Assembly (NCBI GenBank): GCA_043779265.1
Contig: JAYWEM010000106.1
Coordinates: 1 to 38,564, forward strand
Direction: 5' to 3'
DNA: 38,564 nt
Origin: a bacterium
GTDB taxonomy: Bacteria > Eisenbacteria > RBG-16-71-46
Shown here in pieces: positions 24,001 to 30,000 of this stretch. Position 1 is the first letter of the stretch; each line of letters starts with the position of its first letter. The position numbers are program-made.

Positions 24001-27000
24001 AAGTCGCTGGCGCGTGAGTTCGCGTCGCGCTCGGTGACCGTGAACGCCGTGTGCCCCGGATTCATCGAAACGGAAATGACCGCGCAGCTGCCTGAGGCGG
24101 CGCGGAAGGAGTTGCTCGCGAAGATCCCGCTCAGTCGGCTGGGTGGCCCGGACGAAGTCGCCGAGGTGGTCGCGTTCCTCGCGTCCCCACGTGCGGCCTA
24201 CGTCACCGGTCAGACCTGGACCGTCGACGGCGGGATGGTGATGGAGTAAGTCCCTGCGTGCCGGGGCCCGCGCGGCTGCCGGTGCGGACAAGGAGGTGAA
24301 CGGAACATGGGTGCCTACAACGAAGAACGTTTCAAGGAGATCATCGCCAAGGAGCTCGAGGTTGACGTGAAGCAGGTCAACCCCGATGCCAAGTTCATGG
24401 AGGACCTCGGTGCGGACTCGCTCGATGTGGTCGAGCTGGTCATGGCCCTCGAGGAGGAGTTCGGTGTGGACATTCCCGACGAGGATGCGGACAAGCTGAA
24501 GACCGTCGGCGATGCCATGAAGTACCTGCAGGAGCACGCGAGCGCCTGAGCGCGCGGACTCCGACGGCGCAGCGTCCTCCGCGCCGTCCGGCCCGACCGA
24601 GGGACCGGACGGCGCGGTGCGGCCGCGCGCCGGCACTGAAGATCACGGAGATGACCGTCGAATGAGTGAGACTCGAGAGCGGGTGTTCATCACGGGCGCG
24701 GGCGTTCTATCGCCGGTGGGGAACAACCTGGAAGACAGTTGGAAGAACCTGGTCGCGGGAGTCTCCGGGGCCGGGCCGATCACGCGTTTCGATGCGAGCG
24801 AGTACGACACCCGCTTCGCCTGCGAGGTGAAGGACTTCTCGTTCGAAGGCGTGCTCGAACGCAAGGAGGCGAAGCGGATGGATCGCTTCGTCCAGTTCGC
24901 CGTCGTCGCCAGCCACGAGGCTGTGAAGCACTCCGGCATCGACCTGGCCGCGACCGACCTCGACCGTTTCGGTGTGATCATCGGGTCGGGCATCGGCGGA
25001 ATGGAGACGTTCGAGGAGCAGCATCGCAACCTCCTCGAGAAGGGGCATCGACGCGTCAGCCCGTTCTTCATCCCGATGATGATCTCCGACATGGCGGCGG
25101 GACAGGTGTCGATCAGTTTCGGCCTGCGCGGCCCGAACTTCGCCACCGTTTCGGCCTGCGCCTCCGGCGCACATGCGATCGGCGAGGCGCTGCGACTCCT
25201 GCGCGCCGGCGATGCCGACGTGTTCCTTGCGGGCGGTGCCGAGGCCACGATCACGCCGATGGCCGTCTCGGGCTTCGGCAACATGCGCGCCCTCTCGACG
25301 CGCAACGATGACCCGCTTCGCGCCAGTCGGCCTTTCGATCGCACGCGCGACGGCTTCGTTGTCGGTGAGGGCGCCGGCATCGTCGTGCTGGAGACCGAGT
25401 CGCACGCCCGTCGCCGCGGAGCGACGCTGATCGCCGAACTCGTCGGCTACGGCGCGTCCGGAGACGCGTTCCACATGACGTCGCCCTGTGCCGACGGCGA
25501 TGGTGCCGCGCGTGCCATGCGGCGAGCGCTGCAGGACGGTGGGTTGGCCCCGGAGCAGATCGGCTACATCAACTCCCATGGCACCTCGACCCCGACCGGC
25601 GATCCCATCGAGGTCACGGCCGTGAAGACGGTGTTCGGCGAGCATGCGAAGCGCTTGATGATGGGCTCGACCAAGTCGATGACCGGGCATCTGCTCGGGG
25701 CTGCCGGCGGGCTCGAGGCCATCATCACGGCACTCACGCTGGAACGCGGCGTCGTTCCGCCCACGGTCCATCTGGACGAGCCGGATCCCGCCTGTGACCT
25801 CGACTTCATCCCGGGCGAGGCGCGGTCGGTGCGACTGGAGGCGGCCCTGTCGAACTCATTCGGATTCGGCGGTCACAACGTGACGCTCGCCCTGAAGGCG
25901 GTCCGATGAGCACACGCGCTCGCCGTCGCGGCGGGCGTGGACGCCGACGCACTCCGCATGCTGCGCCCCCGCCCCGCCCCACCTTCTGGCAGAAGGTGCT
26001 CGCGTTCTTCGGCGCGAAGCGCAAGTCGAGCGCCGGGCGGCTGAAGCGGGGCCCCGATGCGGCTGATGTCCAGGAGAGTCGCGTGTTCCGGGAGTTCTCG
26101 AATCAGTTCGGGATCCCGTTCAAGGATATCGCGCTGTTGAAGCTCGCCCTGACCCATCGCTCCTACCTGAGTGTCACCGGTCAGAGCGCGCGCGAGTCGA
26201 ACGAGCGCCTCGAGTTCCTCGGTGACTCCGTGCTGGGCCTGGTCACGAGCGAGTTCCTGTACCGGCGGCACCCGGACGAGCATGAAGGGCACCTGACCAA
26301 GGTGAAGTCCCTGCTCGTCTCCAAGGCGATCCTGTCGCGCCGCGCGCTCAAGATGGGGTTGGGGCGCTACGTCCTGATGAGTCGCAGCGAGGTCGAATCG
26401 GGCGGGCGTCAGAGGCTCAGCATCATCGCCGACGCGTTCGAATCCGTCCTCGGCGCGATCTACCTGGACCAGGGTTTCGAGGTCGCTCGCCGATTCATCC
26501 ACGAGCATCTGCTCACGGATGCGGATGACATCGTCGCGGACAAACGACACACGAACTACAAGAGCCACCTTCAGGAGTATGTGCAGAGCACGTACCGCAC
26601 GCATCCCGTCTATCGCATCCGGAGCGAGTACGGCCCGGACCACTCCAAGTACTTCATGGTCGAGGTCATGGTCGGCCGCCGCATGCTGGGCGAGGGCCGT
26701 GGCCACAACAAGAAGGAAGCCGAACAGGCCGCGGCGCGCGACGCCATCGAGCGCGTGACCGAGCTCCGCCGCGGAGCCAGCGAAGGACGCCGGGACGAGC
26801 ACGACCCTGTCGAGGAGCGCGAGCCCGAGGATCTCGACGACTCACCACCGTCTCCTTCTGAGGAGGACGAGCATGAGTCGGGTGATGACTCGCGAGGCAG
26901 CCGGCGCAGACGTGGCGGCCGTGGTCGCTCGCGGCGCGAACGCGGCTCGGAGCGTCATGGAAGTGGCGCTGGACGCGGTGACGAGGAGGCTGAGTGCGAG

Positions 27001-30000
27001 CTCGAACTGGCCGAGGAGGCGGAGGCTCGCGGCGAAGTCCCCGTCGAGCCTTCGGCTCGCGAGGACGATGAGCACGAGCCGGTGGCTCGGCCTGACGACC
27101 CGGACGCCGAACTGGATGAGCCGGTCGAGGGGTTCGTGGCGCGGCGGAGGCCCGAGGCCGAGGAGCCTGCGATCATGGCGTTGCCCGCTCGATCGTTCGG
27201 GCGCGGTCGTCGCGCCGGGCGAACCGCGGCCCCGACTCAGGCCCCCGAGCCCTCGGCGGCCGAGGAGGAGCGCCACGTCGACCCCTTCGCCCTTGCCGAG
27301 GTCGCAGCGGAAGCAGCCAGCGAACCCGCCGAGCCTGCCGAGAGAGATGCTGACAAGGAGGCGCTCATCGATGAGATGGAGCGCGCCATGGAGAACTTCG
27401 GCAGGCGCTCGAGTTCGACGCGGAGACGACGCAGCCGCTGAGCGGCTCTCCGAGCGAGTCCGCCTCGGAGCAGGCGTCTCGGCATAAGCAGAACGGGGGA
27501 CCGTTTCCGGTCCCCCGCTCGCAAGCTGCCGCCACATACGATCAGGACATGGCCCCTCGGAACTTTCCTTGCCCTTTCACATAGTGGCGACAGTCCGATA
27601 GCGCCCGAAGGCGCGTCATGATCATCGTCACGTCAGTCCGATACGTCTTCTGCATCATCCCGACAGGCAAACACCTCTGCATGTGGTGTGCCAGTCCGAG
27701 TGGCGTGCCCGGTTTTCAGTTCGAACGTTGCGATATAACGCTTTAGCGATGTCCACGCATGTGAAGCATGGATTCGTGGTCAGATCCATCCGGACAAGAT
27801 GTCCGCTTCGATCGAGTCGTTGCGATTACGCCATGTCGCAACTGCAAGCAGTCGTTGAAATTAGCTGCGGTGGACGCATCGACTGGCGCAAAGGTCAGAA
27901 TGTCCCATCTGCAGGCTCATCCGACGAGACCTCGGCCGCGAAACGTTGGAGCGTCTTGCGCGAGATGCCGAGGACCTTGGCCGCCTCGCTCTGGTTGCCC
28001 TTCGCGTGCTCGAGCACGCGTCGGATGTAGCGGTCGCGCCAGATCTTGAGCGTCGGCAGCTCGGCGTCCTCGATCGACGGACTCGCGGTGCCGAGGTCGG
28101 AGGGCGACCCCACCAGGCGCAGCATCTCGGTCGTCACGGCGCCTGCGCCGGAACTGGCGAGCTGCGCGGCGCGCTGCATGACGTTCTCCAATTCCCGGAC
28201 ATTGCCCTTCCAACGGTGCACAAGGAGGGCTTCCATCGCCGATGGAGCGATGCGCGGGGGGATCTCGCGCCCGAGGCGGCGCGAGTAACGCGCCAGGAAG
28301 AACCTCGCGAGGCTGGGGATGTCCCCCTGCCGCTCCCGCAGCGGGGGCAGCGTGATCTCGACGACCGCGACGCGGAAGAAGAGGTCCTCGCGGAATGTCC
28401 GGTCGACGACCATCTGGCGGAGGTTGCGGTTCGTTGCGCAGATCAGGCGCACATCGACCGGGATCTCCTCGTTGGCTCCGACGCGCTTGACGCGCTGTTC
28501 CTGGAGCACGCGTAGCAGCTTGGCCTGCACGGGCAGCTCGAGTTCGCCGATCTCGTCGAGGAAGAGGCTCCCGCCCGAGGCCTGCTCGAACAAGCCGACG
28601 CGATCCTGCTGGGCCCCCGTAAAGGCGCCACGCATATGCCCGAACAGCTCGCTCTCGGCGAGCCCGCGTACGATCGAGGCGACATTGGAGACGACGAACG
28701 GCATCGCCTTTCGAGCACTCTGCTCGTGGATCATGCGCGCCACGAGTTCCTTACCGGTGCCATTCTCACCCAGCACCAGCGCACTCGCGTCGCCTCTCGC
28801 GTAACGGCTGACATCCTTGAACGTCTGCAGCATCGCCTTCGAGCTGCCGACGATCTCACGGAGGCCGTGAGTGGCGACCTCGCTCGGATCGGGCCAGTCG
28901 ATCTCCTCCTCGGGTTCGCGCATCACCCGGTGTGCTTCGATGGCCTGTTTCAGCAGCAGTCCGAGTTCGATGCGGTCGACTGGCTTGCTGAGGTAGTCGT
29001 AGGCACCTTTCGTCATCGCGCTCATGGCATCGGGGATGTTGGCGTCCCCGGTGATCAGCACGACCGGGACGTCGCCTCGACGCTCACGAAGTCGACTCAA
29101 CAGGTCGAAACCGCCCAGGCCCCGCATCTTGACGTCCGAGAGCACCACATCGAAGTGGCGCTGATCGAACTTCTCGAGCGCTTCCTCGACGCTATGGGCC
29201 TCGTCGGTCAGGTGACCGAACGTGCGCGTCATGGCGGCAAGCGCACGGGCGACGATCTCCTGATCATCGACCACGAGTACCGAGGTGGAGGGCATACCGA
29301 GGGCTCCTGTCGGTGGGGTTGTGGGACATGTAACACGCTGGAGAACCTGCATGCTAGGCTCACCCCTCACATGAAGCCCACCCTGCTGCTTTTCCTGCTG
29401 CTGGCCGTGGCTCCCGTGACTCCCTGCGCTGGCTCGCCCCCCGAGCGGGAGGGGCCGCGGGAGGAGACGATCCGGCACTACCTCGCGGGTCGTTGGCTGG
29501 AGCGCGCGGGGGATCGTGATGGCGCCCTTGCCGAGTATTCGCGGGCCCTGGCCGCCACTCCGGACGACGCTGGGGTCCTGTTGCGCCTGGCCGAGCTCTC
29601 GACCCACGACGGTCAGCCCCTGCGTACGATCGACTATGCCGATCGGGTTCTGGCGATCGACAGTTCGGCCGCACGAGCCCATTGGCTGCGCGGTGCCGCG
29701 CTTTTCCAGTTGAGGCGGACCGAGGAGGCCTACCTCGCGCTGGAGCGGGCGGCCATCCACGGCGCCGACCAGCCCGAGATCCTCAGGACCCTCGCCCGGG
29801 TCGCCGAGTCTCTCTCCCGGACGGAGCGCGTGGCGCAAGTCTATGCGCAGATCTCCGGCGTCGAGCCCGAAGATGCCGAGGCTTGGTTCCAGCGCGCCGC
29901 CTCCGAGGCGCGACTCGGCCGATTCGCTCTCGCCGACTCACTGCTCGCTCGCTCGCTCGTGCTCGATCCGATCCGCCCGGGCGCGATCTTCCTTCGGGCA

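Follow-up and report, generated by a model that had tools for sequence, protein, structure and literature searches.

An RNase III with an N-terminal amphipathic helix and a long disordered charged tail in Candidatus Eisenbacteria

RNase III is usually regarded as a small soluble dimer. RNase II has an N-terminal amphipathic helix, and the amphipathic helix of MinD needs dimerisation. The MinD helix has been reported to replace the membrane-targeting sequence (MTS) of RNase E, for which we used the description in PMC4372235. The literature also ties blocky charge and R/E-type patterns in RNase E to RNA binding and to foci. The PNPase-binding sites at the ends of Caulobacter and cyanobacterial RNase E are short and Arg-rich (PMC3376730, PMC3964918); known PNPase sites vary widely among phyla.

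We analysed the rnc gene of a genome (G000) from Candidatus Eisenbacteria, an uncultured group of bacteria, within a window, i.e. the whole stretch of DNA under analysis, of 38,564 nucleotides, along which all coordinates are counted. Its product is an RNase III of ordinary catalytic make-up that carries two extra elements, one older than the other: a basic amphipathic helix and a lineage-specific Arg/acidic tail.

The rnc gene and its start within the fabF region

The following features define the gene, its catalytic core and its start:

24617..25909, + strand: fabF, ketoacyl synthase; in relatives its last ~40 codons are dual-coded with rnc (Pfam, locus comparison)
25792..25797, + strand: decayed site of the relatives' start, CTG then TGA in the rnc frame (locus comparison)
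25906..25909, + strand: ATG start of rnc, overlapping the fabF stop (ATGA) (sequence)
25906..27441, + strand: rnc, encoding a 511-aa RNase III extended at both termini (ORF, Pfam)
26128..26520, + strand: RNase III nuclease domain with E103, D107, D176 and E179 (Pfam, alignment)
26557..26751, + strand: double-stranded RNA-binding domain (dsRBD), residues 218-282 (Pfam)

An earlier note on this DNA had described a 511-aa rnc ORF encoding an Arg/Gly leader, a nuclease-dsRBD core and a disordered tail of ~230 aa with kept short motifs, and each of these elements was confirmed: the ORF, which is intact, and the leader by sequence, the core by its Pfam domains and catalytic acids, and the tail (227 aa) by AlphaFold and 25 tails from family f1. 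The gene lies at the end of the order yceD-rpmF-plsX-fabH-fabD-fabG-acpP-fabF-rnc, in which a 60-aa ORF is, by its look, presumably rpmF. PF14622, PF00636 and PF00035 all scored above cut-off, giving one nuclease domain (residues 75-205) and one dsRBD. E103, D107, D176 and E179 aligned with the catalytic acids of E. coli RNase III and were invariant in 65 homologues. The product carries the signature motif and an RNase III domain followed by a single dsRBD, as in class 1 RNase III, and class 1 structures (Thermotoga 1O0W, Aquifex 2NUG) were the best matches in a fold search. From its family, we infer that it cleaves double-stranded RNA as a dimer.

A single contig covered 25066-27700 with zero differences in two runs, which may themselves be the source of the DNA, and there was no sign of an assembly error at rnc. 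A wrong-frame or opposite-strand gene over the tail was rejected: the ORFs at 26842-27537 (-) and 26873-27487 (+) had no Pfam match, and it is the rnc frame that carries the conserved protein motifs. No internal sigma-70 promoter or U-tract terminator was found around rnc in G000, and no Rfam match within 19000-29000.

In G000, AAGG is positioned 11-8 nt 5' of the rnc ATG, the modal position for this genome. An in-frame, open ATG was present 115-130 nt inside fabF in 33/33 relatives from families f1 and f3, where rnc appears to start ~40 codons inside fabF. This internal ATG is kept despite seven different preceding amino acids and with local A/T enrichment, which fits translation initiation and disfavours fusion of FabF with RNase III through a -1 frameshift in the relatives (slippery sites were not formally searched). 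Judging from this pattern of conservation, the overlapping start, through which leader and helix remain translated, is under selection. As a consequence of the dual-coded start, many database entries of these RNase III proteins are annotated too short and miss the helix.

The N-terminal leader and amphipathic helix

Upstream of the nuclease domain, the product carries two further elements:

25906..25980, + strand: Arg/Gly/Pro-rich leader, residues 1-25 (sequence, homologues, AlphaFold)
25981..26013, + strand: amphipathic helix, residues 26-36, a putative membrane-targeting sequence (moment, AlphaFold, helical wheel)

AlphaFold predicted a helix at residues 27-34 (pLDDT ~79). On a helical wheel, F27, W28, V31, L32, F34 and F35 fell inside a 160-degree arc with basic flanks at R24 and K38-K40, so that the helix shows the aromatic/hydrophobic face, small polar face and basic flanks of an RNase E-type MTS. 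However, the helix core comprises only ~9-11 residues (27-35) against ~15 in the RNase E MTS, and the earlier likening of the helix to that sequence does not extend to its length. The hydrophobic moment over 11 residues was 0.56 in G000, compared to a family median of 0.65 and 0.65 for the E. coli RNase E MTS; over 14 residues it dropped to 0.42 in G000 versus 0.64 for E. coli. Of 400 random 57-residue stretches, 33% attained a moment of 0.56, while none (0/400) matched the G000 helix jointly in moment, hydrophobicity and charge. The claim that the helix stands out from background is thus valid once hydrophobicity and charge join the moment, but not for the moment alone, which is unremarkable in G000. 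By moment alone the G000 helix is weak.

The helix had been described as phylum-wide. It is present in the phylum, but its range is wider: with thresholds chosen after the data had been seen, it preceded short-tailed RNase III across FCB phyla in 22/30 cases versus 0/29 controls, these being genomes Bacillota-like by their RNase III and size, many of which fail merely by having no in-frame sequence upstream. Since the helix precedes short-tailed RNase III in these phyla, it is, on comparative grounds, older than the tail. We found no report of such an amphipathic helix on RNase III in the literature searched.

Given these properties, membrane targeting by the predicted helix is plausible. A distinctly unlikely alternative is that the helix docks against the nuclease dimer or a protein partner while acidic tail motifs fold onto the basic RNA-binding surface, tuning cleavage. 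Proteins are common binding partners of short amphipathic helices, this one is predicted with a pLDDT of ~79 in the absence of lipid, and the best-kept internal tail motif lies within an acidic stretch, all of which would suit such self-regulation. However, the linker between helix and core differs in length and sequence among loci, and any residues seem acceptable in the helix as long as its pattern is preserved; both points suit binding to a lipid surface more than to a pocket in a protein.

The disordered tail and its distribution among relatives

The C-terminal region comprises the following features:

26758..27438, + strand: disordered tail, residues 285-511 (AlphaFold, composition, loci)
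26902..26928, + strand: RRRRGGRGR basic block, residues 333-341, also in KhpB of G000 (motif comparison)
27262..27288, + strand: EEERHVDPF, residues 453-461; retains one half of the family motif E.GRPEGPLEERHVDP[FY] (motif comparison)
27349..27396, + strand: predicted short helix 482-497, [DE]EMERA motif (AlphaFold, motif comparison)
27397..27438, + strand: terminal FGRR...RRRRSR motif, a putative site of docking or RNA binding (motif comparison)

The G000 tail is 45% charged with a blocky charge pattern (z 4.6 against shuffles), and AlphaFold gave it a pLDDT mostly <50, with helices at 358-374 and 482-497. The tails were 36-49% charged, with a blocky pattern in most of family f1 and R/E repeats in family f3. 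Among the f1 tails, RR..GGR[GR] occurred in 24/25 and [VI]D[PV][FYW] in 19/25, and the terminal [FYW]G[RQ][RK] stood at the very end of 25/25 whole tails and was found in 112/120 homologues; the [DE]EMERA motif was present at 5/25 f1 loci and in 88/120 nearest homologues. The motifs keep their order among f1 loci. The tail is thus, like a degradosome scaffold, a long disordered region carrying conserved short motifs. No Pfam match was found in the G000 tail, and ESM Atlas returned a best feature score of 0.78 and no family. When tail motif profiles were compared with the 3098 called G000 genes and E. coli RNase E, rnc alone matched; a longer family-motif profile missed even G000 rnc. In a dicodon test the first half of the tail scored no higher than its reverse strand, so the case for its being coding depends on the conserved motifs that follow it.

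Whole tails measured 200-366 aa at 25/25 f1 loci and 364-432 aa at 5/5 f3 loci, counts that omit four loci cut by contig ends and include one f3 locus from an unpublished genome (G026). Among 120 database homologues, 111 of the 117 that could be parsed had tails of at least 150 aa. The long tail had been taken to be family- and order-wide. This is true of f1 and f3 but fails for the order, because family f2 of the same order had tails of 8-9 aa in 3/3, and family f10 of another order was tailed (69-256 aa in 8/8). Elsewhere tails were short, with a median of 4 and a maximum of 36 aa at the 59 measurable of 80 mixed-taxon loci. At least three changes were needed to account for the long tails on a quick tree whose deep branches are without resolution.

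These repeated changes, the spread in length from 200 to 432 aa with repeats, and the tails of 177-240 aa that follow the dsRBD in Burkholderiaceae RNase III and are unrelated to those of Eisenbacteria would also be expected from a mostly neutral expansion, in which a GC-rich lineage tolerates long Arg/Glu/Pro/Ala tails under weak selection on a few residues. We regard this as very unlikely, as it fits poorly with the kept order of the motifs, the position of the terminal motif at the very end in all 25 tails, the rarity of long tails elsewhere and the selection on the overlapping start.

RNA-processing partners and comparison with known systems

The RNase E/G gene of G000 ends after ~515 aa, i.e. 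after the catalytic domain as the earlier note had stated. Its further inference, that RNase III replaces the absent RNase E/G scaffold, fails on four grounds: RNase E/G is short and without scaffold in 57/57 relatives, whether their RNase III is tailed or short-tailed; RNase Y, a known membrane scaffold, is present in G000 and 11/11 f1 genomes; the helix arose before the tail; and tails of the same kind occur on KhpB, PNPase, RluB and a second Rho. Long tails thus do not occur specifically where other scaffolds are missing. RNase J was not found in G000. RNase R/II was likewise not found there, yet was present in 55/57 relatives and G000 is 92% complete, so this absence is probably an assembly gap.

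RNase III could nevertheless be a true degradosome scaffold, with the helix as anchor, the terminal aromatic-Gly-Arg motif recruiting PNPase and other motifs recruiting RNase G or a helicase, as in RNase E. Its [FYW]GR[RK]..R end resembles the similarly short, Arg-rich PNPase-binding ends of RNase E introduced above. Furthermore, the terminal motif, so regular on these tails, otherwise ends only 4/3098 called G000 genes, and the comparison of loci indicates that it is portable between RNase III and KhpB: KhpB ends in it in 4/4 f13 and 2/3 f15 genomes, where RNase III is without it, and in 0/11 f1 genomes. RNase Y was also not found in 3/3 f3 genomes, the bearers of the longest tails. However, it was equally not found in the short-tailed f7, f17 and two f13 genomes; the scaffold reading has to accommodate the short RNase E/G of all relatives and the RNase Y of f1; and the tail has no sequence similarity to the E. 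coli RNase E C-terminal half, no Pfam match and no counterpart to its motif profiles in G000 or E. coli RNase E. Since PNPase sites vary so widely, the likeness of the ends may be compositional only, and the motif also ends 1/20 RNase R proteins. Together, these points make a true scaffold rather doubtful.

IF2, RluB, KhpB (all three named by sight of the sequences, and so presumptive) and the second Rho are among the longest low-hydrophobicity segments of G000. The Arg/Gly block of the RNase III tail recurs in KhpB of 9/11 f1 genomes, and PNPase has an R/D tail in 15/15 f1 genomes, an Arg/Gly tail in 3/3 f10 genomes and a short end in 12/12 others. Family f3 combines the longest RNase III tails with short PNPase and KhpB, so tails do not always occur together; across 33 related genomes, KhpB length correlated weakly with RNase III tail length (rho 0.37).

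We therefore propose, with evenly balanced confidence, a membrane-tethered RNase III whose tail would bind RNA and cluster with other tailed RNA proteins in a distributed network, of which RNase III would be one member and not the sole substitute for an RNase E scaffold. The helix would lie in the inner-membrane surface, where two short helices might together give a usable grip because RNase III is presumed to be a dimer. The Arg blocks of leader and tail would bind RNA weakly at many points, the tails of RNase III, KhpB, PNPase and others could gather these proteins into membrane-side RNA-processing foci, and one or two of the tail motifs may serve as docking sites for a specific partner.

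A more far-reaching version, which we consider unlikely, holds that RNase III is membrane-anchored throughout FCB by an unrecognised N-terminal helix and, in the Eisenbacteria lineage, organises a third kind of degradosome as its scaffold and recruits PNPase via the portable C-terminal aromatic-Gly-Arg motif (on KhpB elsewhere) and with its basic leader written into the last 40 fabF codons. Should the helix prove to be a membrane anchor, the claim extends to cultured FCB bacteria and is immediately testable, and the presumed site of double-stranded RNA processing would be revised across much of the bacterial tree. Should PNPase dock on the tail, RNase III would join RNase E and RNase Y as a third independent degradosome scaffold. 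The terminal motif moving between RNase III and KhpB offers a concrete peptide for testing.

Compared to class 1 RNase III (E. coli Rnc, Thermotoga 1O0W, Aquifex 2NUG), the rnc product shares the nuclease domain, single dsRBD, signature motif and catalytic acids, and adds ~50 N-terminal residues with the amphipathic helix (~90 in relatives) and the 227-aa tail. The long-tailed RNase III of Burkholderiaceae likewise has a low-complexity tail C-terminal to the dsRBD, but this is Ala/Lys-rich with evenly mixed charge and is accompanied neither by an N-terminal helix nor by these motifs; Burkholderiaceae are generally described as keeping a full RNase E. The RNase Y-based degradosome of Bacillota also has a membrane-anchored endoribonuclease as organiser (PMC5289998), although RNase Y anchors by a transmembrane helix and G000 encodes an RNase Y of its own. 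MinD and RNase II provide parallels for a short amphipathic membrane grip. Finally, the C-terminal scaffold of RNase E (E. coli, P. aeruginosa, Caulobacter, cyanobacteria) belongs to a different nuclease, and the RNase III helix is shorter and N-terminal to the catalytic domain. Thus, of the proposed likeness to an RNase E scaffold, the role of replacement falls away while the architecture stands: an amphipathic helix of similar moment, Arg-rich blocks, charge-patterned disorder, short motifs and an Arg-rich extreme end.

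The rnc gene and its probable start inside fabF in relatives

25906-27441, + strand: rnc open reading frame, 511 aa (translation of the window)

The last gene of a plsX-fabH-fabD-fabG-acpP-fabF-rnc run (Pfam annotation of the window) encodes an RNase III with a standard core (Pfam domains at residues 75-205 and 218-282). Its catalytic acids align with those of E. coli RNase III, and its best fold-search matches were the Thermotoga, E. coli and Aquifex enzymes; the protein of this Eisenbacteria genome (G000) is a member of class 1 RNase III. Ca. Eisenbacteria supplied most of the named homologues in a homologue search, and in two sequencing runs, from which this DNA may itself derive, one contig spanned 25066-27700 with zero differences. 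Full-text literature searches listed no work that describes a scaffold tail or amphipathic helix in a bacterial RNase III, the RNase III of Eisenbacteria or a fabF-rnc overlap, which is not proof of absence; G000 RNase III is a real and apparently undescribed variant.

In families f1 (that of G000) and f3, rnc is read in frame -1 relative to fabF at 34/34 loci. An open in-frame ATG was found 115-130 nt before the fabF end in 33/33 relatives (32/32 without the unpublished genome G026; loci L003-L031 and L098-L101, corresponding to 25792-25909 of the window), counts that are not independent because the loci are kin. The ATG arises from an A-ending codon preceding a conserved Cys codon of fabF, and its A was kept across seven amino acids; in the outgroup, the A was present in 5 of 31 loci, was open and in frame in only 1, and the frame of rnc relative to fabF varied (15, 7 and 9 loci). 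GGA usually stood at -9, where such sites most often lie in G000, and 27 of the 33 relatives had no other ATG, GTG or TTG upstream of the helix. Over 12 codons on each side of the ATG, third-position A/T reached 0.42 and 0.32, compared with 0.07-0.26 elsewhere in fabF. Leu two codons past the ATG was encoded by CTA in 11/32 and CTG in 0/32 cases (elsewhere 1/695 and 283/695), and Val five codons past it by GTT or GTA in 30/31 (elsewhere 43/724); through these codons the rnc frame retains MRPR[FL]R[ST]. The overlap appears to be dual-coded in the relatives, with codon signs of selection, and we infer that rnc is translated there from the ATG inside fabF. G000 has lost this start: it has CTG TGA at the site and ATGA at the fabF stop, to which its start has moved; a strain from another study's run has different letters at the old site and again a stop two codons on. 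Gene callers often miss the overlapping start, resulting in truncated protein entries.

Two strong hairpins (z -4.7) without a U-tract lie at and after the rnc stop (27430-27540) and could act as a terminator, protect the 3' end or be cut by RNase III; z was below -3 in 8 of 30 f1/f3 loci. Separately, f12 loci L078 and L079 carry the RNase III signature NGRMEFLGD, its first Glu replaced by Gly.

The N-terminal helix and the disordered tail

AlphaFold placed a short helix at residues 27-34, and a helical wheel put F27, W28, V31, L32, F34 and F35 within an arc of 160 degrees, flanked by basic residues, which is how PMC4372235 characterises the RNase E membrane-targeting sequence (MTS). The 11-residue moment was 0.56 in G000, 0.65 as the median of 34 f1/f3 loci and 0.65 in the E. 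coli MTS. Of 400 random stretches, 33% reached 0.56, and none jointly reached the moment, hydrophobicity and charge of the G000 helix. By thresholds chosen after the data were seen (moment 0.55, hydrophobicity 0.3, non-negative net charge), the helix was present in 34/34 f1/f3 loci (33/33 without G026), in 21/31 other Eisenbacteria loci and in 22 of the 30 best-scoring loci in the phylum to which an Ignavibacteria genome belongs (41 genomes), compared with 11% of 600 random stretches and 0 of the 29 best-scoring loci from a control phylum (41 genomes), many of which had no upstream in-frame sequence at all. Judged by eye, RNase III also begins with it in single loci whose records are titled Calditrichaeota, Latescibacterota, Krumholzibacteriia, GN15, Chitinivibrionales and Chitinispirillales; a weaker form is seen in two Fibrobacter loci. 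Since all these helix-bearing proteins outside Eisenbacteria are short-tailed, the two additions were acquired separately; the helix is, judging by its distribution, an old FCB trait. The earlier note had described it as MTS-like and phylum-wide: arc and flanks agree, but the core is shorter (9-11 residues versus 15 in the MTS) and the spread wider, across FCB phyla.

The short FCB RNase III proteins that begin with this basic amphipathic helix, mostly encoded in fabF-rnc operons, are those of loci L146, L148-L150, L157, L190 and L258-L286. L204 (genome G158), from a record titled Bacteroidaceae, is probably mislabelled, its RNase III and phylum neighbours looking like Bacillota.

Counted from the end of the dsRBD, the tail was 227 aa in G000, 200-366 aa in 25/25 whole f1 loci, 364-432 aa in 5/5 whole f3 loci (4/4 without G026; four f1/f3 loci are cut by contig ends) and 69-256 aa in 8/8 f10 loci. 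The long tail previously ascribed to family and order does not hold for the whole order, as f2, though of the same order, had 8-9 aa in 3/3 loci. Other families had 2-118 aa in 19 measurable loci (five outgroup loci were not parsed and one had no measurable end), mixed-taxon loci a median of 4 and a maximum of 36 (59 measurable of 80), and Burkholderiaceae 177-240 aa of different make-up. A quick tree with unsettled deep branches joined f1 and f3 (SH-aLRT 99) and needed at least three changes of the long-tail label. In a separate long-tailed clade (P0259, P0260, P0262-P0267, P0385), most members end in an aromatic residue plus a run of Arg/Lys; tails were 314-433 aa in three tree rows, and the source of one cluster labels it Gemmatimonadota.

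The f1 tails are 36-48% charged, blocky in most, and the f3 tails consist of R/E repeats with evenly mixed charges; two RNase E studies tie both charge patterns to RNA binding and foci (PMC13657362, PMC11964227). Consistent with the disorder and kept short motifs noted earlier, AlphaFold confidence was largely low in the tail, where helices were predicted at 358-374 and 482-497, and motifs counted in f1 tails were a terminal [FYW]G[RQ][RK] (25/25), an Arg/Gly block (24/25), E.GRP (20/25), [VI]D[PV][FYW] (19/25) and the helix motif [EQD][MI]E.A[MLFY] (5/25). The tail had zero family match in Pfam and the ESM Atlas.

RNase III among other RNA proteins

RNase E/G of G000 is an RNase G-length protein and, as had been proposed, lacks a scaffold. 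There was one RNase E/G per genome in all 57 searched (two of these split), and the eight checked from those with the longest open frames, some of them in short-tailed families, had the same end point. RNase Y, which serves Gram-positive degradosomes as their membrane scaffold (PMC5289998, PMC7509114), is present in G000 and in 22/30 relatives (11/11 f1, 0/3 f3, 0/2 f7). Because RNase E/G is short regardless of the RNase III tail and RNase Y occurs in G000 and all 11 f1 genomes, there is no compensation pattern, and the suggestion that the tail replaces a missing RNase E scaffold fails. Nor is RNase III alone in its tail, since IF2, RluB and KhpB (all named by sight) and a second Rho are among the longest low-hydrophobicity segments of G000.

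G000 contig C28, 26525-28054, + strand: KhpB/Jag, long insert rich in Arg and Glu that shares the Arg/Gly block of RNase III (also loci L105-L144)
Locus L035, 1372-3573, - strand: PNPase with Arg/Asp repeat end (also loci L287-L316)
G000 contigs C125, 7498-8757, and C178, 10377-11615, + strand: two Rho genes, one standard, one with a disordered N-terminal Arg/Gly segment
G000 contig C21, 2505-4193, - strand: RluB-like pseudouridine synthase (named by sight), tail of >300 residues with about eight tandem Arg-rich repeats
G000 contig C59, 16943-18523, + strand: second S1-repeat protein, Gly/Arg-rich tail (standard S1 on C49)

The KhpB block occurred in 9/11 f1 and 2/2 whole f2 genomes. In the 30 of 34 genomes read, PNPase ended in Arg/Asp dipeptide repeats in 15/15 f1 and an Arg/Gly tail in 3/3 f10, and was short in 12/12 others, f3 included. 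A second PNPase-like match was seen in 5/34 genomes (f13, f15, f17). RNase R (loci L317-L336) ends 164-178 residues past the catalytic motif in f1, without a long basic tail, and 210-358 residues past it in f7, f8, f11, f13, f14 and f15.

The aromatic-Gly-Arg motif at the end of f1 RNase III closes KhpB in 4/4 f13 and 2/3 f15 genomes, where RNase III is without it, and is absent from 11/11 KhpB proteins of f1, of which one is truncated and another apparently leaves the frame at its end. It matches only 4/3098 called G000 gene ends and ends 1/20 RNase R proteins; its role may be to dock a common partner or no more than RNA binding. Its place on f1 RNase III and, instead, on f13/f15 KhpB speaks for a dedicated scaffold for PNPase and others, as does the likeness of the short, Arg-rich tail end to the ends by which RNase E of Caulobacter and cyanobacteria binds PNPase (PMC3376730, PMC3964918). 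We nevertheless consider such a scaffold unlikely: RNase E/G is short in short-tailed families too, RNase Y accompanies the f1 tails, further RNA proteins are tailed, and PNPase sites vary widely between phyla.

These comparisons establish the anatomy and distribution of helix and tail, and from them localisation, binding and clustering can be predicted. In the most likely mechanism, to which we give about an even chance, two short helices would hold dimeric RNase III at the membrane, the basic leader and charged tail would bind RNA weakly and multivalently, and the enzyme would cluster with other tailed RNA proteins. That RNase III regulates itself seems improbable to us, and a neutral expansion of the tail slightly more so. 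As to the degradosome scaffold of the earlier note, the compensation argument falls away and the tail shows no similarity to the C-terminal half of E. coli RNase E; by its architecture, RNase III may work in part like the RNase E scaffold.
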